A DNA stretch of 60,432 bases, the filler included. It is 5 parts of 5 records of this genome, joined end to end, with 100 filler letters (N's around TTAATTAATTAA, not from the genome) between each part and the next. Parts side by side here need not be neighbours in the genome. Positions count along the whole stretch, not along the records: positions 35,293 to 45,359 come from SRR31156797_26028; 4 more parts are not named here. The stretch is one strand, 5' to 3'. This document shows, piece by piece, positions 12,051-51,768 of the stretch (position 1 is its first letter; each line of letters opens with the position of its first letter). The position numbers were made by a program, and so were the translations under genes. The notes under the pieces are model-generated. The model worked only from the letters and a program-made list of their open reading frames with translations, was not told the origin of the DNA and searched no databases.

Positions 12051-12150
12051 NNNNNNNNNNNNNNNNNNNNNNNNNNNNNNNNNNNNNNNNNNNNTTAATT
12101 AATTAANNNNNNNNNNNNNNNNNNNNNNNNNNNNNNNNNNNNNNNNNNNN
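12051..12150. other. Artificial contig spacer
   Basis: N44-TTAATTAATTAA-N44. Confidence 0.99.
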
Positions 12151-13035
12151 GGACTGGGAGCAGTTGACATGGTCATTGGGGTGCAGGTGCTGGTATTCCC
12201 CTTTGTTATAACCCATGATTTCCAGCCCCCGGTTGGCAATAACCTCGTTGGCATTCATATTAGTCGAGGTGCCGGCGCCGCCCTGAAACATGTCAACGGG
12301 AAACTGGTCGTGCAGCTTGCCGTCTAAGATTTCGTCACAAGTTTGGCAGATAGCCTTCATCCTGACCTCATCAACACTACCAAGCTCGTGGTTGGCCAGA
12401 GCAGTTGCCTTTTTAACCATTGCCAGAGCTTCAATCATGTGATCAAAATTAGTAAGATGAATCCCGGAAATGGCAAAATTTTCTATGGCCCGCTGGGTCT
12501 GAACGCCATAATAAACATGGTCGGAAATCTCTCGAGTTCCCAGAGAGTCATGCTCCCGGCGGAAACCGCTGATCACTATGGTATCATTTTTATTGTTTTC
12601 ATGCATTCTGTCAGCTAGCATTCGCATTCGACGATTAATGCAAACCGCAACCTGGGAAACAATCCGGTAAAAATAATCAGGATACTCCCCCTTAAACGCT
12701 TCAATATTATCCCGAGATATCTGCCATATTTTTACGCCGCCTCTGGTGAATGCACCGTTTGAGTGTGCATCATCTCCAAGGAAGGCCCCTTCGCTAATTA
12801 TGGATCCTGCAACCATGGAACCGGCCTTGCGGGCGATGCCATGCAAGCCGCGCATCAACTCCAACTCTCCTTCTAGGATAACTCCAGCCCATTGTCGTGG
12901 AGTGGCTTCATGAAAAATCCATTCATTTTGGCAATATACCTGTTCTTTGCCCTCAGTAAAAAAAAATGCCAGATCTTTTTCGCTAATGCCCGTTGATCTG
13001 GCTGCCAGTTGGATAATGCTCTGTTCAATTGTCAT
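12151..13035 (-). CDS. aspA: Aspartate ammonia-lyase with N-terminal cyclic nucleotide-binding-like domain; 3' end truncated
   Basis: From about residue 157: RREHDSLG...YYGVQTQRAIENF...QGGAGTSTNMNANEVIANR...HPNDHVNCSQS. The first ~145 aa follow a cNMP/CRP pattern (IFHE.TP...VILEGELEL...GSIISE). Confidence 0.9.
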
Positions 13036-14774: not shown

Positions 14775-16123
14775 AGAAGATCCTCAATCTCGGCAAACAG
14801 TTCTGACTGCGACGGAATCAAGGAGGAGTACTTCAATTCGCCGTTGATATAAATTGAGGGAAGTTGCTTTACCCCCATTTCCCTGCAGCGGGCAATATTC
14901 TGAGGTTCTGTGTACATATATTCGACCACATCAATGGCGTAACCGAACTTATCCTTAGCATCCATGGCAACAGCAAGCATATAGGTACAGGCCGCGCAAG
15001 CAGTGGAATCGAGGGTAAACACTTCAACAAGAGGCTTGTCCAGGTTGGCATATTCCGGGAGTTCACCTTCAAAAACAATCTCCGTGGATTGATAATTTGC
15101 TATCATCTTGCGCACAGCCTCTGTGTTGTGGGCTGCCTGCTCTGCTGCAATCACGTTTTCCGCCGGCGTTTCATAAGGAAGGTCGCAGCCGGGGGCCAGG
15201 ATGTAATTATCAGTTGAAGGGAGCGAGTCGATCAGATCGATTGCACCTTTCATATTGTCCTGCTGCGATCCATGCAGCATCACCGTTGTCAGTGGGAGAT
15301 TCCCACCCAGCACAACATTATGCTTGTCACATATTTCCTTTGCTGCCACCAAATCGACATTTTCATCAACGGAAATGGAGTCGCAGCCGGTCAAACACAT
15401 CTGGTCCAATTTCTTGGTGGCATCACCACAGACAAAGAAGGAGGATCGGATTCCCTTTTCATGAATACACTCAAAAAGTTCAGAAAAAGGAGTATGCATA
15501 AACTTTTTGAAGTGTCTGGGTGAAATCTGCGAGATCATCGGATCCACTACAGCAATGACATCCATACCGGTCTCCATAACGTAACCGGCGACTTTTTTGG
15601 AGACCTCGCAGCAATACTGCATAAGACTCTGCATGTAGTCAGGTTTCTCTATCATATCCATAAAGATCTCCGTTCCGCGAAGATGAAGCGCCAGAGTGAA
15701 TGGCCCTGTGATAAGACCATAAAGTGCGGTGGTCTCGCCAAACGCTGCCTTGGCACGACGCATCACGTCCAGCTCTATGGGCAACCGCCCCATGTCGGCA
15801 GTAATTTCCTGCTCAACAATTTCATCTGTTTCAGCAAAGGGATGGGTTTTCACTGTGGGAGGGGAATCAGGAGCCCAGAGCAGCTCGCAACCAAGCATTT
15901 CAGCTTCAATCTGCAGATCAAACATAATTGGCTGACCGTCAGGCTTGTAAAGCTCATTAACTTTAAGTAGAGATTCAAAACACTTGCCAGCTTCCTTATA
16001 GACTTCTTCAGCATTATAGCCGACCAGTTTCCCGGCATGCACACCGGCAAAAGGAACCCATGGAATGGTATCAACTTTTTGTCTGTTAAGCACCTGAAGT
16101 ATAAGTTCTTTTCCTGTAGTCAT
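14771..16123 (-). CDS. UroD/MtaA-family methylcorrinoid methyltransferase (MT2) with C-terminal thioredoxin-fold domain
   Basis: PWVPFAGVH, EAEMLGC, GPFTLA, VVDPM.SQISP, LGGNLP, ILAPGCD. The C-terminal ~90 aa contain CAAC and GVKQLPSIYING. Confidence 0.85.
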   Translation of the reverse strand: MTTGKELILQVLNRQKVDTIPWVPFAGVHAGKLVGYNAEEVYKEAGKCFESLLKVNELYKPDGQPIMFDLQIEAEMLGCELLWAPDSPPTVKTHPFAETDEIVEQEITADMGRLPIELDVMRRAKAAFGETTALYGLITGPFTLALHLRGTEIFMDMIEKPDYMQSLMQYCCEVSKKVAGYVMETGMDVIAVVDPMISQISPRHFKKFMHTPFSELFECIHEKGIRSSFFVCGDATKKLDQMCLTGCDSISVDENVDLVAAKEICDKHNVVLGGNLPLTTVMLHGSQQDNMKGAIDLIDSLPSTDNYILAPGCDLPYETPAENVIAAEQAAHNTEAVRKMIANYQSTEIVFEGELPEYANLDKPLVEVFTLDSTACAACTYMLAVAMDAKDKFGYAIDVVEYMYTEPQNIARCREMGVKQLPSIYINGELKYSSLIPSQSELFAEIEDLL

Positions 16124-35192: not shown

Positions 35193-35292
35193 NNNNNNNN
35201 NNNNNNNNNNNNNNNNNNNNNNNNNNNNNNNNNNNNTTAATTAATTAANNNNNNNNNNNNNNNNNNNNNNNNNNNNNNNNNNNNNNNNNNNN
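35193..35292. other. Artificial contig spacer
   Basis: N44-TTAATTAATTAA-N44. Confidence 0.99.
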
Positions 35293-35293
35293 A

Positions 35294-36031
35294 ACTGCAT
35301 TAGCTTTTGCTATGCCTGATGATGGTGGTTACGTTGTAACCCCTTCAACTGGTCATTATACTGAAGACGAAGTTGTTGACAGCAACGGTGCTGACAAGAA
35401 CATCACTTTCTGGGAACTACCGTTATGGATACAACTATCCGTAGTAGGTGGAGCAACTCTATCTACCTTTGCATTTTTAAAATACCTCCCTCTTCTTCTC
35501 GGAAAAATATTTACAAAAGGCACTAATCCTAAACTTGAAGCAATAGTCGCTTACATATCTAAGAATCCAGGCTGTCTTGAGATTGAAATTGCTGAGAATC
35601 TGAATCTAAAGAGAGGCACCTTAAGGTACTACCTTACAAGATTACAATCCTCTAATTGCACACATACGATTAGAAAAGGCAAGATAAAAGGTATTTTTCA
35701 CATCACCTGCTCAAAAACGGAAGATCAAAAAATCCTTGATCTGCATAAGAGAAACGGGACCCGTAAAAAGCTGATCGAGATTATAGCAAAGAACCCGGGT
35801 GTAACAGGTCAGGAACTGTCTGAAGATCTCAATGTTGACAAGAGTACAGTACACTGGCACGTCAAAGAGCTCCATGCAGATGAATTCATCAACTTCGAAA
35901 AAGATGGGAGATTTAAAAGATATTATCCACAGTCTGCTTTGGTATCTGATGACAACAACAGTAATATGTTAAAAATGGAGGAGAATCAGACTTTCTCCTC
36001 TCTTCAAAACTATGAGATTAAATCTAAATAG
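35294..36031 (+). CDS. Membrane-anchored double winged-HTH transcription regulator; 5' end probably truncated
   Basis: The frame is open from the gap (TALAFA-MPDDGGYVVTP). An acidic segment is followed by a TM (FWELPLWIQL...) and two wHTH repeats (YISKNPG...IAENLNLKRGTLRYYL; IIAKNPG.T..ELSEDLNVDKSTVHWHV). Confidence 0.85.
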   Translation, partial: TALAFAMPDDGGYVVTPSTGHYTEDEVVDSNGADKNITFWELPLWIQLSVVGGATLSTFAFLKYLPLLLGKIFTKGTNPKLEAIVAYISKNPGCLEIEIAENLNLKRGTLRYYLTRLQSSNCTHTIRKGKIKGIFHITCSKTEDQKILDLHKRNGTRKKLIEIIAKNPGVTGQELSEDLNVDKSTVHWHVKELHADEFINFEKDGRFKRYYPQSALVSDDNNSNMLKMEENQTFSSLQNYEIKSK

Positions 36032-37121
36032 TTACCAGTCCAAACCCGTAAACAGGGTCCTTTCCTGAACTTCCAAGGTCAATCGCATTAGAGCAAAGAA
36101 GCTCTCTTACTTCCTGTGAAGTCAGGGACTGATTCTCACTTTTAACCAAGGCAGCAACTCCGGTTACAAAAGGTGTTGCCATTGATGTTCCTGATTCTGT
36201 CGTATAGCCGTCATTCAGGAATGTTGAATAGATACTTACTCCGGGTGCAGCTAACTCTACTTCATCTCCGTCAGAACTCCATATTGGTGCAATTCCAGTG
36301 CTGTCAATGGCTGAAACTGCTATTACAGAGTCGAACTTTGCAGGATACTCAACATTATTCGAAGTAGTATCTCCATCTCCACTGTTACCAGCTGCAGCGA
36401 CCAAAAGAACATCTGAACTATATGCATTATCACATGCTTCTTCAAAAGCCTGCGAATAAGCAGTAGTTCCAATACTCATAGAAACTATATCCATATCATT
36501 TGCAACAGCCCACTCTATGCCTTCTATAACATCAGATATCTGCCCATTACCACTACTGTCTAAAACCTTGACAGCGTATAATTCAGAGTCATATGCTACA
36601 CCAACGACACCAATAGAGTTGTTACAGGCAGCTATTATGCCAGCAACATGTGTACCGTGGCCATTGTCATCATCCCATTTCTTACTGCTTTTGTCTCCTA
36701 CCAAACTTACTCCACCTGCTACATCCAGATCGGAATGTTTCTTGCTTATTCCAGTATCTACTACAGCAATCTTAATCCCGGCTCCGGTTGAATTGCTCCA
36801 GGCATCTGGCGCGTTTACCTCAGAAACACCCCAATCGATGACCTGTGAGGATTGAGTATCTTTCTTTTCAATATCAATAGAGATATCATTCTCTATATAC
36901 CGAATTTTCTTTTCACTGGACAGATCTTCTATGGTAGATTCAGATATATCTGCAGAAAAAGCATTGATTTGTTGATAAATAGTGTAATTTGAAATGTTGT
37001 ATTCTTCAAGGATAGCAGTGTCTATATTTCCACTATATCCTACAATTAATGGTTTAGCGTTTGCTGCTAATGGTAGTGGTAACAATACCATTGTGATTAG
37101 AAATATTGTTTTGATGTGCAT
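36024..37121 (-). CDS. Secreted subtilisin-like serine protease (S8)
   Basis: Signal peptide, I9-like prodomain, catalytic triad VVDTG / HGTHVAG / SGTSMATP. Confidence 0.96.
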   Translation of the reverse strand: MHIKTIFLITMVLLPLPLAANAKPLIVGYSGNIDTAILEEYNISNYTIYQQINAFSADISESTIEDLSSEKKIRYIENDISIDIEKKDTQSSQVIDWGVSEVNAPDAWSNSTGAGIKIAVVDTGISKKHSDLDVAGGVSLVGDKSSKKWDDDNGHGTHVAGIIAACNNSIGVVGVAYDSELYAVKVLDSSGNGQISDVIEGIEWAVANDMDIVSMSIGTTAYSQAFEEACDNAYSSDVLLVAAAGNSGDGDTTSNNVEYPAKFDSVIAVSAIDSTGIAPIWSSDGDEVELAAPGVSIYSTFLNDGYTTESGTSMATPFVTGVAALVKSENQSLTSQEVRELLCSNAIDLGSSGKDPVYGFGLVTI

Positions 37122-37207
37122 AGTTTCTCCTGTGGCGAGGCTTTTGTTTATTTTTGCTCACCCGGCCTATTAACATTCAAAATATTATGGGCAACTTTAT
37201 TAACATC

Positions 37208-37228
37208 TTATGGCCATACTATCCAACT
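37208..37228 (-). promoter_or_regulatory. Conserved 21-bp motif, copy 1 (subtilase promoter)
   Basis: Coding strand AGTTGGAT-agtat-GGCCATAA, then 4 nt, then a TTAATAAA TATA-like box. Confidence 0.75.
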
Positions 37229-37306
37229 ATCAAAAACATAACTTCTGTATCACACTAAAAATATGATTACATTGTATGATCTTTAAAAAATGTCTGTATC
37301 TCTTGA

Positions 37307-37705
37307 TTAATCTGACCACTCAAGACTACACTGATAATAGTTCTCCCCAACCTTCATGTGCTCAGTACTGTTGTTATACAAAATCATATAGAACTCATCC
37401 AAGTTCTCCATAACCTCTTCCTCCTCAAAAGGAACTTTGCTTTTACCATTAGGAGAAAAGAGTGCCTTCTGTACATAGGGATACTTTTCCAAATCCTCTT
37501 GGGCAAATTCAACAAAATTGCCTGGTTCCCCCCGAGCTGGCTTTACTATTACATAAAGACCTGCATCGGGATTGTCTATAACTTGTACAGGCTCGTCTAT
37601 AACTGCTCCGGGATTGTATATAACTAAAAAGAAGTAAGCAATAGCAATCACAGCAGAAAGAATAACAACGCCACCAATAACTTTTAAACCTTTATTTAAT
37701 TTCAT
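37307..37705 (-). CDS. Membrane-anchored hypothetical protein (partner of the metalloprotease)
   Basis: One N-terminal TM helix and an acidic soluble domain. GAGG RBS. Directly downstream of the metalloprotease. Confidence 0.7.
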   Translation of the reverse strand: MKLNKGLKVIGGVVILSAVIAIAYFFLVIYNPGAVIDEPVQVIDNPDAGLYVIVKPARGEPGNFVEFAQEDLEKYPYVQKALFSPNGKSKVPFEEEEVMENLDEFYMILYNNSTEHMKVGENYYQCSLEWSD

Positions 37706-37755
37706 TCTATTATCCTCATAAAAGTAAAGTAGAGTTTCCTCTACTTATATTTTTG

Positions 37756-38475
37756 TTAGAAGTGATATCTATTGTTCCCAATAATGCTATTGCAGTCGCT
37801 GCACCATTCATCTGTTGAATAGCAATGTTCATAGTTCATTATGCAGACTGGAAGATCAGAATCTTTATGGTCAGGACAGCCATAGTTATGAGATGCTTCG
37901 TGTTGAGCAACATGCCAATCTCCACTAGAACTTTGATGTTTTAAAATCCATGTATCAGCAAGAGGACCATTTTCAGCCTTCCCTCCTGAATCCATGTCTT
38001 GACCTGTAAAAACAGCTAGCATGTCACAACCCTGTTTATTGCTCGGCCAGTTTATATCATATTCGGCATCATCCATCAATTCACTACCATCAGTCTCACT
38101 GTCATCACTTTCCCATTCGTCATAGACATATACTATAAAGTTGATATCGTGATCAGCATAGAATGCATTATCTGCAGTTTCTATGGTATCAAATGCTTCC
38201 TGTTGCCAGTTGTTACCAAAATGAGCTCTGTACTCTTCATCTGCATCAATCAATACATATACACTAACTATGGATTTCGTACCTACTGATGTCTGGTTAC
38301 TCTGTGCAGATATCAGATTTTCAGTTGCAGCATTTTTTAAATCTTCTGAATAGTTTTCAGGCAAACGCTCCAGATCTTCAAAACTCTCAATCTTTGCACC
38401 ATCAGGTTTCAAGTCTTTTTCGATGAACTTTCTAACAGTTTCAGGATTATCATCAGTAGCAAAGTAATTGTTCTT
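37756..38475 (-). pseudogene. Metzincin-type zinc metalloprotease lacking its 5' end
   Basis: QHEASHNYGCPDH and Met-turn CIMNY. The frame is open from 38475 after a TAG at 38478-38476, with no ATG, RBS or signal peptide upstream. Confidence 0.7.
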
Positions 38476-38566
38476 CTATTTTTTCTTATTCTCAAAAATT
38501 ATGGTTATTAATATGAAGACAGGAATTCTTGTATAGATAATTCAGGTTAATCGAAAAAAAATAACT

Positions 38567-38752
38567 CTAGATTTTTGTTCGCTTAACATATTGTTGTAAA
38601 AAAACAGTAAGTATCGAAAATAACAATGTCAAAACCAGTAAAAATAAACTGAACTCATCTTTGAGCCACGATAGATAAGCATTATAGAAAGCAGTCACAA
38701 TGGCTATTAATCCAAAAAATCGAGATAGTTGTGTATATAGTTGTACGTCCAT
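38567..38752 (-). CDS. 61-aa two-TM protein, putative immunity protein
   Basis: GGAG RBS and two hydrophobic helices. Follows the secreted precursor. Paralogous to 41344-41529. Confidence 0.75.
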   Translation of the reverse strand: MDVQLYTQLSRFFGLIAIVTAFYNAYLSWLKDEFSLFLLVLTLLFSILTVFLQQYVKRTKI

Positions 38753-38818
38753 GTGAAATCTCCGATTGTTAATATCTTTATGTTCTAGATAAATAAAAAG
38801 GGAAGTTTAAATCTCCCC

Positions 38819-39616
38819 TCAAATATAAAAATAGTCTACTTCAACATGCATCATGCCCGTTGGAGTCAAGAAGAAGTCGAGATATATGTCTCGGTAGTCT
38901 ACATCATAGTATTCAGGAATAGCAGCAAGAATTGCAGCAGCAATTGCAGCTAGTCCTGCAGCAGTACCCATACTGAAAAAAGCCAACACAGCAATAATAA
39001 TTCCGCCGGTCACCAGAAGATCTGCATATTGAAGATTATTGTAAATCAAAACAGAACCCCATGGGGCAGTACTTGGGACATCTATTTTAGTCGACCTCAA
39101 ACTAACGGATTCTTCGTTGCTTGAAGAATCTAATACTTCTTCGTTGAGAGTATCAATTTGTTTTTTAGGCACCTCTATGATCTCATTTGATTTTTTAGTT
39201 TTACCATCAACAGTCAATGATTGCTCAAAATTGCACAAAATACTTTCCTGTTTCTCTTCAATTATTGATGAATCCATCACAAAATTAAAATCATTTCCGA
39301 GATACTTGACGTGAGTAGAACCATCTGCTTTTATTATTCCTGAGACAGTTCCCTTTGTCTTCAAGGTTTTAAGTTTGTTGTCCACTTCTTTTTCAACATT
39401 AATTTTAAAATCACCGGTATAATAGATGTCTTCTCCAATTTTTTCATAACTACTAATTTTGACATCAAGGTCATGAACTGTAATATCCTTAGATTCCAGC
39501 ATTTGCTCATACCAAGCAATCTCAGCTCTGGCACTTGCAGCGGGCACAAATGCTAAACTAACGACTAATAGTGCCATGAACATAGCACTTATTTTGATTT
39601 TTCCATTTAGTTTCAT
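38819..39616 (-). CDS. Secreted precursor with hydrophobic, bacteriocin/halocin-like C-terminal domain
   Basis: Signal peptide ...LVVSLAFVPAASA, charged pro-region, linker SSSNEESVSLRS, then a Gly/Ala-rich hairpin LLVTGGIIIAVLAFFSMGTAAGLAAIAAAILAAIP. Confidence 0.7.
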   Translation of the reverse strand: MKLNGKIKISAMFMALLVVSLAFVPAASARAEIAWYEQMLESKDITVHDLDVKISSYEKIGEDIYYTGDFKINVEKEVDNKLKTLKTKGTVSGIIKADGSTHVKYLGNDFNFVMDSSIIEEKQESILCNFEQSLTVDGKTKKSNEIIEVPKKQIDTLNEEVLDSSSNEESVSLRSTKIDVPSTAPWGSVLIYNNLQYADLLVTGGIIIAVLAFFSMGTAAGLAAIAAAILAAIPEYYDVDYRDIYLDFFLTPTGMMHVEVDYFYI

Positions 39617-39798
39617 TTATTTTTACCTCTATTACCTACTCCAAGGCAAGATTCCGTAAGCTTTAAACACTATCATAGCAAACATTTCTATGCCTCAGGG
39701 CAATTCCGAGATTCAGGACACTATTACCAACACTGTTTGAATCTCGGCTACATTTATTCATGTAGCAATTAAAAAATCTAGATCTACTTATTAAGAAA

Positions 39799-39819
39799 TT
39801 ATGGCCTTATCATCCAACT
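39799..39819 (-). promoter_or_regulatory. Conserved 21-bp motif, copy 2
   Basis: Coding strand AGTTGGAT-gataa-GGCCATAA, then 4 nt, then TTAATAAG. Confidence 0.75.
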
Positions 39820-39867
39820 GAAGTATTAGATCTATTTTCCCTAGATGTTTCTCAAGTCTGATGACTA

Positions 39868-39888
39868 AGTTGGATACTATGGCCATAA
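39868..39888 (+). promoter_or_regulatory. Conserved 21-bp motif, copy 3
   Basis: AGTTGGAT-actat-GGCCATAA, then 4 nt, then TTTATATT. Confidence 0.75.
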
Positions 39889-39966
39889 TTTTTTTATATT
39901 ATCTATAAATTAATGAGTTTAGATCGAAATTAATGAAAATGAGACCTCTATTGGGGAGCTAACGGT

Positions 39967-40722
39967 TTGAATCATACAGCATTAATTATCCTCTTTATCA
40001 TATTTGCTTCAGGCTGTATTGATACAAGTACAAATAACGAATCCACATCCACTGTATTACCAGATGGACAAATAGAAACTTACAGCAACACCAGCACTGT
40101 AACACCAGATGTAGAAAATCAGAATGAGATCACCGATAATTCTAACGTTGCCATTGGTACAATGTCAAATATCACTCAATGGTTTTCTGAAAAAGATAAT
40201 AAGAATACTATTTACGCTCTTGTTGGAGATACCATTATAATTGAACTCGAAGAAAATCCCACAACAGGATATTCATGGAATATGAAACACAGTGAAGGAC
40301 TCGAACTTAAAGAAGACACATACTTCGCAACGAGTATAGATGCAGAACTGGTAGGAGCACTAGGTTCTCGTATGTGGTTCTTTGAGGTCACTGAAACAGA
40401 TGAGCAGGTTGTGTCCGGAATCTATGTGCATCCATGGGAAGAAGTTACAGGAACCGAAGACAGCTATGAACTGACAATCGATGTTGTTCCGGAAAGTGAA
40501 CTTATAAAGACTACTGGAACTGTGACGTACAACGACCTTGAAGGCGGATTTTATGGAATAGTGGGCACTAATGACACGAGATATGACCCGGTGAACCTAC
40601 CGGATGATTTTAGAATTGATGGAACGGAAGTCAGATTCACAGCTTATCCACATGATGATATGATGAGTTTCCACATGTGGGAACAGATAATAGAAATAAG
40701 GACTATTAGTCCGGTTTTATAA
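39967..40722 (+). CDS. Lipoprotein with protease inhibitor I42 (chagasin) domain and an additional C-terminal domain
   Basis: Lipobox-like ASGC, S/T-rich linker, GDTIIIELEENPTTGYSW, Y.HPWE. Confidence 0.85.
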   Translation: MNHTALIILFIIFASGCIDTSTNNESTSTVLPDGQIETYSNTSTVTPDVENQNEITDNSNVAIGTMSNITQWFSEKDNKNTIYALVGDTIIIELEENPTTGYSWNMKHSEGLELKEDTYFATSIDAELVGALGSRMWFFEVTETDEQVVSGIYVHPWEEVTGTEDSYELTIDVVPESELIKTTGTVTYNDLEGGFYGIVGTNDTRYDPVNLPDDFRIDGTEVRFTAYPHDDMMSFHMWEQIIEIRTISPVL

Positions 40723-40787
40723 GCAACTTGAAACTGAAAATATTAGAAATAAACAAGATTATTTGTTAATACTAAAAAGAGGAAACA

Positions 40788-41318
40788 ATGACAGCCAAAT
40801 CCAAAACTCTTTTAGTCCTCATAATCGTTGCAGCACTTCTGGGAACAGCTATCTACTTCATTCAGGTGAACTACTTCGACACCCAACAAGGAATCATTTA
40901 TTCAGATTATGGCATCAATGTTTCCGATTACAGGGAACTGGTTGGCTCTTCAAGTGATGTATTTACAGGGAAGGTTATCAAACAGGTTGACACGTCAACA
41001 GAACCACATTTGCGAACGTATTTCAGTGTAGAGGTCATAGAAACGATAAAAGGTAACGCTACTGGAAACGTCGTCGTAAACCAGCCAGGTGGATATGAGT
41101 ATATGTTCGTCTGGAAATATCTGGTTCTTGAGAAAGGAGATGAACTGCTGCAGCCGGGGGAACCCTATCTTTTTGTTACCAAAGGGGATGATGAAAGTGG
41201 GTACATCTTTGCTCCTACATATGGTAACCTTTTAATCGAAGACCAGGAGGATTACCAACAGAAGATGGCAAGATTCCAGAAAGCATTTGCAGAGGAGATT
41301 CCTTTTGAGTTTCCTTAG
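40788..41318 (+). CDS. Membrane-anchored/secreted hypothetical protein
   Basis: N-terminal TM, then a beta-rich domain (ELVGSSSDVFTGKVI...VEVIETIKG...LLQPGEPYLFV). GAGG RBS. Confidence 0.75.
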   Translation: MTAKSKTLLVLIIVAALLGTAIYFIQVNYFDTQQGIIYSDYGINVSDYRELVGSSSDVFTGKVIKQVDTSTEPHLRTYFSVEVIETIKGNATGNVVVNQPGGYEYMFVWKYLVLEKGDELLQPGEPYLFVTKGDDESGYIFAPTYGNLLIEDQEDYQQKMARFQKAFAEEIPFEFP

Positions 41319-41343
41319 CTACTACCATCATTGAGGTTTTCAT

Positions 41344-41529
41344 ATGAATACACAGTCAAGTAAAAAAACATCTCGATTTTTTGGAATAATAGCTTTCATA
41401 GCTGCATCCACTAATTTTTATCTAGGGGTGATTAAAGACAATTCCAGTTCGACACTACTTATTCTAACATTAGTTTTTCTCTTTCTTTCAGTCATTGCAC
41501 AGATATTTGAAAAAAGACATGAAGAATAA
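41344..41529 (+). CDS. 61-aa two-TM protein, orphan paralogue of 38567-38752
   Basis: 27/61 ungapped identities by manual alignment (SRFFG.IA, N.YL, KD, LL.LTL.F, KR). GAGG RBS. Confidence 0.75.
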   Translation: MNTQSSKKTSRFFGIIAFIAASTNFYLGVIKDNSSSTLLILTLVFLFLSVIAQIFEKRHEE

Positions 41530-41727
41530 AGAAGCTTCAACATTGTATCTTTAGCTTAATTTCTTTTCATTTCAAGCCCAGTTACAATAAAAATAATAGC
41601 TTGAAAGGTGGAATCTTAAAATATTTTATGAAATATCTTCTTCTAATTACTATAAGCGAAGAAACCTGAAAAGAGTTCAAACCAGAATAGAACTCAAAAA
41701 CAAAAAAAGATGAAAAAAGAAAGAGCC

Positions 41728-42621
41728 TCAAACGAGGTCTTTCAGGTGGAACTGGTACTTGCCGAGCTTTCCGCCGTAGTTTCCTGCGGTGATCTTTGAG
41801 ACACCAGGAACTGCGATAGCTGCTTCGATACCTGCCTTTGTTGCTTTCTGGATAGCATCCTCATCTAGACCGTTGATGACAAGCTCGTAAACTGCCTTTA
41901 CACCCTCTGGGATCTCGGTGCCTTCTACCTTGTCCCTGATGGATGGGCAGAACTTCTCGTTTGCAGTTGCCTTCATGAACTTGTAGTTGTTGAATCCTGC
42001 TTTTGAACCACTTGCAACAATTCCGCCTGGGAATGGAGTGATTGTACCTTCAAGGTCCTTGATAGCTTCTACTGCAACTTCTGCTGCTGTGAGTGCTGTC
42101 ATCTGGCTGTCTCCGAAGATAAAGAAGTTACCGCCTGCAATACCTGCAACAGCGCCGATGTTCTCTTCTACGAGGAAGTCGCCTTCCATGATAGGGATGC
42201 TGTACATCTTGCGACCGCCGACTTCTGTCTCGGATTCCATTCCGTCACCGAAGAACTTGAGTTTAAAGCCCACGTTGAACTGTTTCTCAGCATCTGGAAG
42301 ACCGTTGAAAACAGCTGTTGTTGGTGCTGTAAGCACACACTGACCGAGGCGCTCAAGTAACTGGTGCTCGAGTGATTCGTATCCGAAGGTGCAGATCTGG
42401 ATGTATACACCAGGTCTTCCGTCAGGAGTCTCGTCAGGACCAACGAACTTTTCAATACCTGCTTCTGCAGGACACATAATAACAGAGGTACCAAATCCGG
42501 TTGCTTCAAGTGCAGCTATCTCTGCCCAGCGTTTTGTTGCTGCGGTGATAAGCACTCTTGAAATTTTGATTGGAAACGCTTCTGCAAAAGTATCTTCGAT
42601 TTCTACTCCATTGATATCCAT
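41728..42621 (-). CDS. ftr: Formylmethanofuran-tetrahydromethanopterin N-formyltransferase
   Basis: [71 protein letters not shown]. Confidence 0.97.
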
Positions 42622-42731
42622 AATAATCCCTTGTTTCAAGTTGAAATTGTAGCTGTGAACATATTACATGCCAAGCTAGCATTGCAGTAATACAAGACAA
42701 TTACAATACATATACTCTTCGAAAAGTAAGA

Positions 42732-44408
42732 TTATCTTCCACCGTATTTGCGATATGTCTTATCAAAGAGTGCAAACATTTCCCTGTCAATTTCCCTGTA
42801 TTTACCAATCTCAAAGATCGCTTCGTTAACAAAAATAGAGACTGGTTCTATATTTGAAAGGTTTGCAAAGCTCTTTGATGAACTTGCTGTTGATTCAACC
42901 ATCTGTTCCCTTATCGATATTTCACAAACCTCAAGGATTGCATTGACTGCATTTGAAGCCTGATCCTCGTGACTATTCTGTGCCGCAACCGTGCAGAAAT
43001 ATTCCATTACAGGGATTATCCTTGAGACCTTCTCATCGGAATGTTTCCTTGCGGCAACAACTCCTATGTCTTTTAGTGCTGCAGTAGTATCAAGGATCGA
43101 ATCTTTTCCAAAGATCTCCCCGATCTCTTTTAAGGCATCGATCACTTTATCAAGGCAATCATGCTTTTTCAGGTCAGGAGATTCATGAACGGTCTTTATT
43201 CCTATGTCCCTGAGTGCGTAGATGATGAGCTTTTTCAGGTGTTCCTGATCCTTATTGTCCACTGTGCGTGCAAACTCCAGAAGAACAGTTCTCACATTGT
43301 CCATGGTAAGTATGTCTGCATTTGATGCTGCATCAAGAGCTATCTTTTTCAGGAGTATTACTGATTTTTCCGTTGGCTCAAGCATATCTTTTTTTGCAGT
43401 TGCAATTCCGATCTGTCCGGTTGCTATTGCAAGTTTGTGCAGGGGTGTAGACACCATTTTGTTGGTGAGAATATCATTAAAATCTTTAAGGTTCTTTGAA
43501 TGCCTAATCAGTGACAGTTTGTCAAGAGGAAGGAAATGCTCTTTTTCCCTGTATATTTCAAAAAAGCCGGTCATATTGTCGATGGTATCAAGTGTGAAAC
43601 TTTCCATATCAGCATCAGCACATTGTTTTCCAGTGGAACCAAAGGCGTCTATAACTTCTATCAGGGCAAATCTGTTTTTTTCGTCCTCTGCCAGAATTGC
43701 AAGATGGTAAAGATGCTTATTCAGATGTTTGATAATGAGAGCCTTGTTTCCACTTGAAGCCAGAACCTTTGTGCACAATTCAGGAATCCTCTTTATACCA
43801 ACGGATGCAACGAAAAGATCCTTGTTTCTTATTGAACCACGAATGATATCTATTATGGGCTGAAGAGGATCAATATTTCCTTTTCCTGATTCCAGTTTCC
43901 GGTAGCTTTCGTTTACATCATAAATCTGGAGATCCCTGATGAATTTATCATAGTATGAAATTGAAGCTTCTTTTCTCAGGTATTCAGCCAGGAAAAAGGC
44001 CAGTACCGAGAGAATGAATGAATAAGCAAGGAGAAGAATCATACCGGCTGACCTGAATGTTCCAAGAAAGTGCATAATGGATGATGCAAGTGCAAACGTT
44101 CCGATGGTATAGGAGAACATATCGGTCAAAGAGTCTCTTTTTCCGGCAAGCCACAGAGAAGTATACCAGAATATTGCAAAACAGATACCAAGGATGATAT
44201 TATTCCAGAAGAAATCCATTTGCTGCCCTTTTAGCAAAGTTGCAATAAAAGCGAGCTGGATAACCAGTGCACCGATGGCAAGATCGGCACCTACATCCCT
44301 TAGATTGATTTTCAGGTAGTTCTTCACCAAAATGTCTGCAATAAGGAAGAGCGATATCACACCACTTATAAGGGCTGTGTCAACGATGTCTGGTATCAGG
44401 ATTTCCAT
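42732..44408 (-). CDS. Hypothetical membrane protein: ~5 N-terminal TMs and a helical (HEAT/ARM-like) repeat region
   Basis: Hydrophobic first ~145 aa, then recurring L..IG..A units (ALRDIGIK, ALKEIGEI, ALKDIGVVA). Confidence 0.75.
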   Translation of the reverse strand: MEILIPDIVDTALISGVISLFLIADILVKNYLKINLRDVGADLAIGALVIQLAFIATLLKGQQMDFFWNNIILGICFAIFWYTSLWLAGKRDSLTDMFSYTIGTFALASSIMHFLGTFRSAGMILLLAYSFILSVLAFFLAEYLRKEASISYYDKFIRDLQIYDVNESYRKLESGKGNIDPLQPIIDIIRGSIRNKDLFVASVGIKRIPELCTKVLASSGNKALIIKHLNKHLYHLAILAEDEKNRFALIEVIDAFGSTGKQCADADMESFTLDTIDNMTGFFEIYREKEHFLPLDKLSLIRHSKNLKDFNDILTNKMVSTPLHKLAIATGQIGIATAKKDMLEPTEKSVILLKKIALDAASNADILTMDNVRTVLLEFARTVDNKDQEHLKKLIIYALRDIGIKTVHESPDLKKHDCLDKVIDALKEIGEIFGKDSILDTTAALKDIGVVAARKHSDEKVSRIIPVMEYFCTVAAQNSHEDQASNAVNAILEVCEISIREQMVESTASSSKSFANLSNIEPVSIFVNEAIFEIGKYREIDREMFALFDKTYRKYGGR

Positions 44409-44469
44409 GCGAATATATTGTACATGTTTATTTATATATATATTGAAATTAAACCATATTAGCTAAAGT

Positions 44470-45359
44470 CTAGTTTCTACCAATAGATAACATTCTTGCA
44501 TTTATTGCTACTATAATTGTACTCAGGGACATCAGAACTGCACCGGCTGCAGGCGATAATAGTATTCCCTGCTGGTAAAGTACACCTGCAGCAAGAGGGA
44601 TTGCCAATGCGTTGTAACCTGTAGCCCAGAAAAGGTTCTGTATCATCTTGCCGTAGGTTGCCCCGGAAAGATCTATAATTGCCAGAACATCTATAGGATT
44701 GCTTTTTACAAGCACTATGTCCGCTGTTTCCACTGCAACATCGGTGCCTGCTCCAATGGCTATTCCGACGTCAGCCTGTGCCAGTGCAGGTGCGTCATTG
44801 ATACCATCACCCACCATTGCTACTGTAAGCCCTCTTTCCTGAACTTCCTTTATTCTGGATGCCTTTTCCCCCGGGAGTACTCCTGCAAAGTACTCATCAA
44901 GTTCTATCTGCCCGGCCACGCGTTCAGCCACCTGTTCCTGGTCACCGGTAAGCATTATGCACTTAATTCCCATTTCTTTCAGTTTGCCTACGGTTTCCTT
45001 TGACTCGGGTCTGACAATATCTTCCAGTGCAACGGCTCCAACTGCATTTCCATCAATCAGAACAAAGACTGTGGTTTTTCCCTGAATGTCTATATCTTTC
45101 AGCTTTTCTTCAGGATAACTGATATTTTCTTCCTTAAGGTATCCGGGACTAACAACTTGAACCTCTTTCCCATTAACCGTTCCCTGGGCACCTTTTCCTG
45201 CTATTGCACTGAAATTCTCAACATGGAAAATACCTTCTGAAGAGTCAATAATCGCCTTTGCTATGGGGTGTTCGGAGTTTGCTTCGATTGAAGCTGCATA
45301 TTTCAGTATTTCCTCTTTTTCGATGTTTTCATCGAAAAAAAAGACATCATTAACACCAA
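44470..45359 (-). CDS. Heavy-metal (Cu) translocating P1B-type ATPase, 3' part
   Basis: SEHPIAKAI, MLTGD, MVGDGINDAPALA, QNLFWATGYN, LMSLST. Truncated at the gap. Confidence 0.93.
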
Positions 45360-45459
45360 NNNNNNNNNNNNNNNNNNNNNNNNNNNNNNNNNNNNNNNNN
45401 NNNTTAATTAATTAANNNNNNNNNNNNNNNNNNNNNNNNNNNNNNNNNNNNNNNNNNNN
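45360..45459. other. Artificial contig spacer
   Basis: N44-TTAATTAATTAA-N44. Confidence 0.99.
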
Positions 45460-51668: not shown

Positions 51669-51768
51669 NNNNNNNNNNNNNNNNNNNNNNNNNNNNNNNN
51701 NNNNNNNNNNNNTTAATTAATTAANNNNNNNNNNNNNNNNNNNNNNNNNNNNNNNNNNNNNNNNNNNN
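51669..51768. other. Artificial contig spacer
   Basis: N44-TTAATTAATTAA-N44. Confidence 0.99.

Follow-up and report, generated by a model that had tools for sequence, protein, structure and literature searches.

Transcription regulators that span the membrane, one-component proteins of the ToxR/CadC-like kind, have been surveyed in bacteria and archaea and, according to the accessible part of that survey, are common in archaea (PMC10269533). Very little is known of the regulation of exported proteins in methanogens and of competition among them. Here, we describe an AT-rich locus at positions 35294 to 41529 of a stretch of methanogen DNA of 60,432 nucleotides, joint filler included (the whole stretch is called the window below), in which genes for exported or membrane proteins share one promoter element, a membrane-spanning regulator with two winged helix-turn-helix (wHTH) domains is encoded (reg239), and the gene of a 265-residue precursor with a signal peptide (pre265) is followed by that of a small protein of two membrane helices (sm61a). 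From its sequence, we propose the locus as a candidate for a regulon under a transmembrane regulator, with a bacteriocin-like candidate module whose family is new. The reading that we favour, to which we give a probability of about one half, is that the locus represents the portion so far sequenced of an AT-rich and hypervariable secretome region of Methanolobus, with a regulon and an effector/protector pair.

As far as the part of the survey at hand describes such regulators, reg239 resembles them in combining a DNA-binding domain with one or more membrane spans in a single protein (PMC10269533). A further likeness to transmembrane regulators is that the promoter element stands before the operon of the regulator itself, suggesting autoregulation, while the two tandem wHTH domains of HTH_24 / HVO_0163_N type, the signal segment with a second span and the very short outside part set reg239 apart from them. 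In ToxR-ToxS, a regulator is paired with a small exported partner, and regulators of the reg239 type are likewise encoded together with one, a lipoprotein. In the literature searched, which comprised few subscription journals, the family, the element and the regulon are nowhere described, and neither is a regulon of exported proteins under this type of regulator or its operator.

Pore-forming colicins possess a hidden uncharged helical hairpin and a conserved C-terminal 'business end', are encoded next to a small multi-helix membrane immunity gene, and have orphan protectors in non-producers. A pore-forming colicin with its membrane immunity protein would be the closest working analogy for pre265 and sm61, without implying membership. 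A hairpin predicted at residues 197-232 of pre265, a conserved C-terminus behind more variable N-terminal parts, the adjacent two-helix gene and orphan copies of sm61 all recall this arrangement. Unlike the colicins, pre265 matches no colicin domain in Pfam, its modelled hairpin is wrapped by beta strands and not by a helix bundle, and its signal points to export by Sec; the sm61 gene shares its strand with pre265, its product has just two helices, and the archaeal host lacks an outer membrane.

The available part of a preprint on halocins reports that halocin H4 needs a membrane-spanning stretch for activity, that halocin C8 is cut from a precursor, ProC8, which consists of HalI and HalC8 and also yields an immunity protein, that a regulator gene, halR, lies upstream, and that TIGR04449 is the domain model of halocin C8 (bioRxiv 10.64898/2026.07.27.741052). 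To the extent that this source describes them, pre265 shares with the halocins an exported archaeal precursor (~280-360 amino acids, aa), a hydrophobic stretch (H4) and a regulator gene beside the structural gene (C8). Unlike in halocin C8, the candidate protector of pre265 is a separate downstream gene and not the N-terminal part of the precursor. In addition, pre265 matches no family in NCBIfam, which is presumed to include TIGR04449, carries a Sec and not a Tat signal (no RR in the first 30 residues) and has no cysteine at residues 177-265, its C-terminal module (C-module), whereas the HalC8 peptide is cysteine-rich. A kinship with halocin C8, with which an earlier note on this DNA had compared the locus, was therefore not borne out, and on the features compared the halocins C8 and H4 appear to be analogies, not kin. 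As regards proteolytic release of a C-terminal peptide, pre265 has a variable linker of low model confidence at residues 151-176, and an S8 protease gene lies nearby.

With the polymorphic toxins, as characterized in the part of the source consulted, the locus has in common a small downstream gene, extra copies of it and a site in a variable region; unlike them, pre265 shows no variable C-terminal toxin cassettes on a constant carrier (PMC3482391). The archaeal 'dark matter islands' are, in the available part of their description, lineage-specific loci of secreted or membrane proteins with peptidases, for some of which a role in inter-microbial conflict was suggested (PMC4158269). Like them, the present locus is lineage-specific and fast-changing and groups exported and membrane proteins together with peptidases; it differs from what that part of the description covers by a defined promoter element, a likely regulator and a recurring two-gene module (PMC4158269).

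A promoter element shared by genes for exported proteins

Genes were called by prediction of open reading frames (ORFs), Pfam, NCBIfam and hydropathy, and were compared with a set of 36 Methanolobus genomes and a set of 177 Methanosarcinaceae genomes, in which G denotes a genome, L a fetched locus and P a protein. All nine genes listed in the earlier note, as well as the motif in three promoters, were recovered at their places (Table 1). The element comprises 21 nucleotides (nt) and reads AGTTGGA-N4-W-N-G-R-CCATAA, followed after 4 nt by a TATA box; its two cores are AGTTGGA and GGCCATAA. Three copies are present in the window, compared with 0 expected from 100 shuffles, and they stand before the gene of an S8 subtilase, before pre265 and before an operon that begins with the gene of an I42 inhibitor; the near-palindromic core TATGGCCATA is found in two of the three.

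The element also recurs in the loci of relatives. A relaxed pattern, AGTTGGANNNNWNGRCCATAA, had 66 matches in 21 of the 36 Methanolobus genomes and the reversed pattern, which served as control, had 1. The genome with the closest copy of pre265 (G001) contains the element 15 times at one mismatch, against 0 for the reversed control, and the copies there precede operons for signal-peptide proteins. For 35 instances from non-redundant fetched loci, the next ORF within 450 nt on the same strand was determined; such an ORF was found for 31 of them, and 30 of these 31 start with a hydrophobic signal or anchor, compared with 320 of the 735 ORFs in the same loci. This bears out the proposal of the earlier note that the exported proteins form a co-regulated set. 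Among the relatives, the cargo includes C39-like cysteine, M12 and S8 peptidases, NosD/beta-helix and HEAT-repeat proteins, and many proteins without a family. Taken together, it is highly probable that exported and membrane proteins are co-regulated here through one promoter element. In nearly all of the 34 full-length instances, positions 26-31 from the start of the motif, which lie outside the search pattern, read T-W-A-A-T-A, and the element therefore lies at a constant distance of 4 nt from the TATA box.

The gene of reg239 is incomplete because the contig ends there, and the predicted protein lacks the N-terminal signal segment, the 5' end of the gene being lost at the contig end. Five full-length relatives (243-269 aa) show the order N-terminal signal segment, second hydrophobic span and two wHTH domains; the span has Kyte-Doolittle values of 1.5-1.8 in all six copies examined, and the N-terminal segment is present in the five full-length ones. 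By its predicted architecture, with a DNA-binding domain and a membrane span in one protein, reg239 thus belongs to the transmembrane transcription regulators. In relatives, the regulator gene follows a lipoprotein gene in a two-gene operon, and in 13 places of nine genomes the element was found ahead of this operon or of a reg homolog, on their strand and at a distance of 56-451 nt. Where a genome has a reg homolog at E<=1e-40, the element is nearly always present as well (13 of 14 genomes); eight of the 22 others contain it too, each in at most two copies. In other genera, a reg homolog of 35-37% identity lies divergently upstream of pre265 (L003, L009, L077), and the pre265 promoter there retains AGTTGGA, with an inverted TCCAACT 11-13 nt upstream of it and a TATA box downstream.

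The regulon under the membrane-spanning double-wHTH regulator is well supported because the element stands both before genes for exported proteins and before the regulator's own operon. We consider it fairly likely that reg239 is the factor that acts at the element, and we infer that it is autoregulated and binds this sequence. Conversely, the element might be no operator of reg239 at all and belong to a promoter cassette that spread with gene duplications, or to a promoter class read by an alternative TBP/TFB, which its abutting the TATA box at a fixed 4 nt, in the position of a B recognition element, would suit, as would the long identical promoter stretches on several contigs of G001, such as gene duplication gives. 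However, the core AGTTGGA...CCATAA is kept across genera while its flanks and the downstream genes differ, its near-palindromic form and the inverted TCCAACT elsewhere are expected of dimeric wHTH sites, and the element stands before reg operons in 13 places and tracks the presence of reg, so that we regard this explanation as unlikely.

A short motif, Y-x-V-T-P (e.g. GGYVVTP), follows directly after the signal segments of both the regulator and the lipoprotein encoded upstream of it, and is kept across genera (window 35312-35360; L001 4563-5728; L003 8495-9706; L063 7357-8582; L064 6540-7792); it may be a site of processing or pairing.

The pre265/sm61 module and its look-alike

Homologs of pre265 are rare: 12 were found among 5.8 billion clusters, and a profile search of 1.84 billion representative proteins returned 33 matches, the longest of 318 aa. 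The module occurred in no longer protein there and therefore is no cassette on large carriers. Full-length pre265 is present in 12 of the 177 Methanosarcinaceae genomes and two copies are broken, one by a stop codon (G122) and one by a split (G123); named holders in public sources are Methanococcoides burtonii, Methanohalophilus portucalensis and Methanolobus species. A metagenome scan with the family alignment yielded two loci, one of which duplicates L001, and tblastn of pre265 against phage and plasmid collections gave zero matches.

The precursor consists of a Sec signal peptide, an amphipathic beta domain of seven strands (residues 46-150), a variable linker (151-176) and the C-module (177-265). 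In alignments of 13 and 24 members, column identity is highest in the C-module (0.61), followed by the N-terminal domain (0.57) and the linker (0.38). The C-module reads TK.DLPS.AP.GS, then the hairpin, then DIY.D.F and EVDYYY, and the terminal EVDY.Y motif is invariant. The comparison of relatives proposed by the earlier note, which was to look for a constant signal peptide or leader with variable C-termini, thus gave the opposite for the C-terminus. The constant part is not specific for pre265 either, since unrelated secreted proteins of the Methanosarcinaceae share a near-identical signal peptide (..LLVS.AFVPAVSA; hhalign probability of 97% on those 34 residues alone); the many other matches of pre265 in the 177 genomes cover only the first 30-60 residues. 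More generally, homology searches with such secreted proteins return many false 'relatives' that match at residues 1-60 only.

An AlphaFold2 (AF2) model from 24 sequences had a pLDDT of 75.6 and a pTM of 0.72, compared with a pLDDT of 57 for an earlier model from 13 sequences, for which Foldseek gave zero matches against the PDB. The better model predicts seven long antiparallel strands at residues 46-150 with alternating hydrophobic positions, a linker of low confidence and one more strand. These are followed by two helices (197-213 and 219-232) that form a hairpin, in which two residues of 40 are charged and beside which amphipathic strands lie, and by a beta hairpin at the end. With this model, neither Foldseek against the PDB nor the BFVD search gave a match at E<=0.001; the best hit of VIA-align wide (Z 6.5, autotransporter and porin barrels) lay within the range of a common arrangement, and pre265 was assigned to no fold. 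In a protein atlas, the top feature score was 0.87 to unnamed Bacillota clusters, and the single named lead, 'Gpos_C8-like' (0.77), was within chance range and backed by no other test. A natural short form of 144 aa (P0020) is composed of signal peptide, linker and C-module, from which it seems that the C-module works without the beta domain. Sorting signals of the archaeosortase type consist of a motif, one helix and a basic tail; the C-terminus of pre265 was considered as such a signal and rejected, as it is formed by a hairpin and an acidic beta tail. A stand-alone copy of the first 85 residues of pre265 lies in G001 (G001:C46:29318-29569; E 7e-35; open frame of 104 aa) and represents a 5' fragment, not a C-terminal cassette.

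The transcript of pre265 would have a long 5' leader (~150 nt) with a predicted structure that is kept in nine upstream regions from several genera, with a compensatory change in 7 of 14 pairs and 85.5% of cells paired, compared with 17-47% when slid; a small GCC/GGC hairpin is part of it. It may be a regulatory RNA element. An Rfam scan of 35294-41750 had zero matches at E<=1.

A homolog of sm61 lies 3' of pre265 in all 14 loci (the window, 12 genomes and one metagenome contig), in one of them twice in tandem (L010), and no pre265 without sm61 was seen among these 14; both broken pre265 copies also have an intact sm61 beside them. The co-occurrence of the small gene with the precursor and its orphan copies, both claimed in the earlier note, were thus found across the family: sm61 homologs are present in 33 of the 177 genomes, 21 of which have no full-length pre265, and no pre265-type gene was seen upstream of an orphan sm61 in the 18 places fetched. 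Several of the orphans sit in arrays of other small membrane genes. At a site of G140 that is syntenic with G005, the pre265 ORF is replaced by 228 bp and sm61 is kept at 96% nucleotide identity. The predicted complex of pre265 residues 176-265 with sm61a had a score of 0.01, which was counted neither for nor against binding. A function of sm61 as a holin, suggested by its small size, two helices and charged tail, was rejected because pre265 carries a Sec signal itself and contains no domain of a lytic enzyme. In the window, a hairpin with a GC stem and a T5 run lies between pre265 and sm61a (38753-38818); a TATA-like TTTATTTA is found ~45 nt 5' of the start of sm61a and a T8 run 3' of its stop (38553-38566). 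The gene may have its own promoter.

A second family (family B, present in 24 of the 177 genomes) is unrelated to pre265 (family A) and has the same layout. Its signal peptide is of the pre265 kind and its body is different; towards the C-terminus it has a hairpin rich in glycine and alanine, which often contains a proline turn, and the tail ends in KIGSHWY.I. When the two families were compared by hhalign, only the signal peptide aligned and no common origin of the C-terminal modules was found. A small hydrophobic ORF follows family B in 22 of 26 loci; these partners belong to at least five unlike types, and the type changes with the subfamily. The commonest, the MERQ type, is present in 24 of the 177 genomes and also occurs as an orphan beside orphan sm61 (L054, L060). 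In G065, a family-B module with its own 72-aa partner immediately precedes an S8 gene (64% identity to that of the window), and in G001 a family-A module immediately precedes an S8 remnant; unlike modules therefore fill the same slot beside the subtilase.

We propose that the cassettes of the region, each of which opens with one extended promoter, would encode exported or membrane proteins only, and that reg239 would most likely bind the element and switch the set on upon an extracellular cue. The cargo would comprise an intact subtilase, a decaying M12 peptidase, an extra I42 copy, two genus-specific anchored proteins and the pre265/sm61a pair. In the latter, pre265 would hold an uncharged helical hairpin that is shielded and can enter membranes, and sm61a would be the cognate small membrane protein that protects against pre265 or tames it, following a logic like that of a bacteriocin with its immunity protein; sm61b, a paralog in the same island, would then be a spare protector. 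The effector was never seen without its partner and the partner often without the effector, the effector is patchy and decaying, the partners track the subfamilies, and orphan partners form arrays; a harmful membrane-active protein with a cognate protector would be expected to show such features. From these patterns we also infer that pre265 may serve to kill competitors. Going further, families A and B could form a new class of Sec-exported, membrane-inserting archaeocins of the Methanosarcinaceae, with a beta-wrapped, uncharged and glycine/alanine-rich helical hairpin as weapon, small membrane proteins for immunity, orphan arrays as immunity collections, a competitor-sensing regulator that fires the weapons together with proteases, and a subtilase that matures them; we put this forward as a tentative extension that is doubtful at present.

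Several observations weigh against an effector with its protector. The pre265 family is not polymorphic and matches no toxin, bacteriocin, halocin or colicin family in Pfam or NCBIfam (the latter at E<=0.01). By the usual Sec rules, a Sec signal together with an uncharged hairpin of ~36 residues would keep pre265 in the membrane of its producer, which suits an anchored envelope protein equally. Orphan sm61 genes could reflect an independent role of sm61, and four of the 26 family-B loci have no small downstream gene. I42 and anch176, a 176-aa protein anchored by its N-terminus, are conserved genus genes. The link between regulator and element consists of position and co-occurrence among related genomes, whose counts are not independent, and an alternative general transcription factor could read the element. 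Finally, the island begins at a contig end (35293), so that its left part is missing and its extent beyond this edge is not given by the sequence.

Several of these points would also fit a regulon for envelope and nutrition without any antagonism, in which pre265 would be a surface protein anchored by its hairpin, sm61 a partner for its assembly or stabilisation, the proteases scavenging or remodelling enzymes, and I42 a shield for the own envelope. The Sec signal and long uncharged hydrophobic stretch, with a variable Ser/acid-rich linker ahead as in stalked surface proteins, point in this direction, as do the full-length conservation of the pre265 family across several genera, the absence of a toxin domain, the status of I42 and anch176, and a cargo dominated by peptidases and beta-helix proteins of surface type. 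On the other hand, such a role would leave unexplained why pre265 is so patchy (12 of 177 genomes, two copies broken), why sm61 outlives pre265 and never the reverse, why an anchor-only form with nothing to display exists (P0020), why the partner families change along with the effector subfamilies, and why orphan partners cluster in arrays. We judge it a serious possibility but a minority one.

The pre265/sm61 module and its family-B look-alike occur in cultivated genera, and the locus provides an operator-like sequence, a candidate transmembrane regulator and a list of target genes for an archaeal secretome regulon. If the toxin-plus-protector reading is true, methanogens would have their first defined system of protein antagonism, and many small orphan membrane genes in the Methanosarcinaceae would be explained; if it is false, the module would still be a new kind of membrane-embedded two-protein unit.

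The island and the variable region beside ftr

The stretch consists of five contig pieces with G+C contents of 54.3, 46.0, 39.0, 51.4 and 43.4%, joined by N44-TTAATTAATTAA-N44 linkers at 12051-12150, 35193-35292, 45360-45459 and 51669-51768. Gene adjacency across a joint is meaningless, and the pieces need not share one organism. The piece that contains the island spans 35293-45359. Homologs with names in public sources assign the organism to Methanolobus.

Table 1. Features of the island and its flanks, with positions in the window
Feature	Position	Strand	Evidence and remarks
Artificial contig joint N44-TTAATTAATTAA-N44	35193-35292	.	left boundary of island
reg239, transmembrane regulator, two wHTH domains	35312-36031	+	HTH_24 in two stretches, 5e-19; hydrophobic span residues 38-56
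S8 subtilase, secreted, intact, I9-like propeptide	36024-37121	-	Peptidase_S8 2.4e-61; Inhibitor_I9 3.5e-4; signal peptide
S8 promoter	37198-37228	-	regulon motif 37208-37228; TATA box 37198-37203
tm132, N-terminal membrane anchor	37307-37705	-	hydropathy; 132 aa
M12 metallopeptidase, 5'-truncated, without signal peptide	37756-38412	-	Reprolysin_5 4.6e-22; HEASHNYGCPDH motif at residue 171
sm61a, 61 aa, two membrane helices	38567-38752	-	hydropathy; conserved loop YNAYLxWF.D; T8 run 3' of stop
pre265, Sec-type signal peptide	38819-39616	-	265 aa; 41-residue hydrophobic stretch at 195-235
pre265 structured 5' leader	39692-39748	-	11-bp stem-loop 39705-39748; 3-bp hairpin 39692-39701
pre265 promoter	39789-39819	-	motif 39799-39819; TATA box 39789-39794
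I42 operon promoter	39868-39898	+	motif 39868-39888; TATA box 39893-39898
I42 chagasin-type inhibitor lipoprotein	39967-40722	+	Inhibitor_I42 2.4e-23, profile positions 4-91 of 91; lipobox FASGC
anch176, N-terminally anchored, 176 aa	40788-41318	+	hydropathy; Methanolobus-specific homologs
sm61b, paralog of sm61a, no pre265-type neighbour	41344-41529	+	47% identical to sm61a
Conserved flank: ftr 41728-42639, 558-aa membrane protein 42732-44408	41728-44408	-	Pfam, NCBIfam

The island has a G+C content of 36.9%, compared with 47.9% in ftr and 40.3% in the gene after it, and the variable regions of relatives (34-37%) likewise differ from their core flanks (41-45%). Beside ftr, which is adjacent to the gene of the 558-aa protein in 13 of 14 fetched relatives, the gene content varies. 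Seven relatives, among them the closest one (88% identity in the 558-aa protein), have zero island genes there, and further relatives have subsets: anch176 (L028, L031), an sm61b ortholog (L034, L065), tm132 homologs (L027, L028, L031, L036) or a reg homolog (L036). Orthologs of sm61b with 70-71% identity stand beside ftr in G091 and G094, again without a pre265 gene. In G095, the motif is present five times beside ftr, where an S8 gene with 88% identity to that of the window converges on a reg gene (74%); anch176 (73%) and another reg gene are found there as well. The accessory, AT-rich island beside ftr that the earlier note had described is thereby confirmed, in a region that is hypervariable.

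Derivation of the island from a virus, plasmid or other mobile element would agree with its low G+C content, the patchy and decaying genes and the rearrangements between genomes. Against this, ORF calls and Pfam revealed no integrase, replication or capsid-type ORF within 35293-45359, and the site is fixed in the chromosome between conserved genes across the genus; such an origin is very improbable.

The genes of S8 and reg239 are convergent and overlap at the 3' end of S8, and this convergent pair is kept in L063, L064 and L001. The window subtilase has the S8 domain, the secretion signal and the catalytic triad, with the Asp, His and Ser motifs at residues 120, 155 and 311. In G078, where the convergent pair recurs, S8 lacks residues 85-168, and in G001 it is reduced to two C-terminal remnants. 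For tm132, zero Pfam matches were obtained; its homologs in L001, L027, L028, L031 and L036 are 40-50% identical and represent a Methanolobus family that is frequent beside ftr.

The truncation of the M12 gene at its 5' end, reported in the earlier note, was confirmed by comparison with L001: nucleotide homology begins at 38443, and the window lacks the ~190 nt that code for the signal peptide in L001. The catalytic HExxH motif is present as HEASH. The copy in L001 (G001) is itself split over two frames, and the gene is probably a decaying gene of a secreted protease and not, as had been proposed, a truncated toxin cassette. In the window, it may be poorly transcribed.

The promoter of the I42 operon is inverted relative to that of pre265. 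By its domain content, the I42 lipoprotein would be a chagasin family I42 inhibitor. The gene is present in 33 of the 36 Methanolobus genomes; in nine of ten fetched loci it stands in a core context without the motif, and a motif-driven copy near ftr was found only in G074 (73% identity), so that the island copy looks like a recruited paralog of a genus-wide gene. For anch176, 15 homologs were found, all in Methanolobus, with 59-84% identity; the gene is also present in L063. These distributions do not fit the view of the two proteins as island-specific defensive genes.

In its broadest form, the earlier proposal regarded the whole island as one interference system of the polymorphic-toxin or halocin-C8 kind, with sm61b as orphan immunity gene, M12 as truncated toxin, and I42 and anch176 as defensive proteins. 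The shared promoter, the small gene 3' of the precursor with its second copy, the truncated M12 gene and the weak 'Gpos_C8-like' lead are in line with this proposal. It conflicts with the conserved C-terminus of pre265, the lack of the C-module on any protein above 318 aa, the missing halocin match together with the Sec signal and the cysteine-free C-module, the assignment of M12 to an ordinary secreted-protease family that is decaying here as well as in G001, the genus-wide occurrence of I42 and a leader that is a lineage-wide signal peptide. We therefore consider it quite unlikely as a whole. What stood of the toxin/immunity regulon is the co-regulation, the strict coupling of pre265 with sm61 and the orphan copies; the assignments to polymorphic toxins and to halocins fell away.

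Partial copies of ftr were seen inside the motif-rich region of L064 (G078:C44), at 12390-12539 (92% over residues 254-303) and 14929-15531 (73% over 58-303), which suggests that the island adjacent to ftr was duplicated or moved along with pieces of ftr. A second hypervariable slot exists in Methanosarcina-like genomes (L005/G005, L049/G140, L108/G119), where it adjoins a conserved gene pair encoding proteins of 272-273 aa and 246 aa (316 aa as called in L005). This slot holds pre265 with sm61 in G005, sm61 alone in G140, and several MERQ-type small membrane genes, ABC-transporter genes and other secreted proteins in G119.

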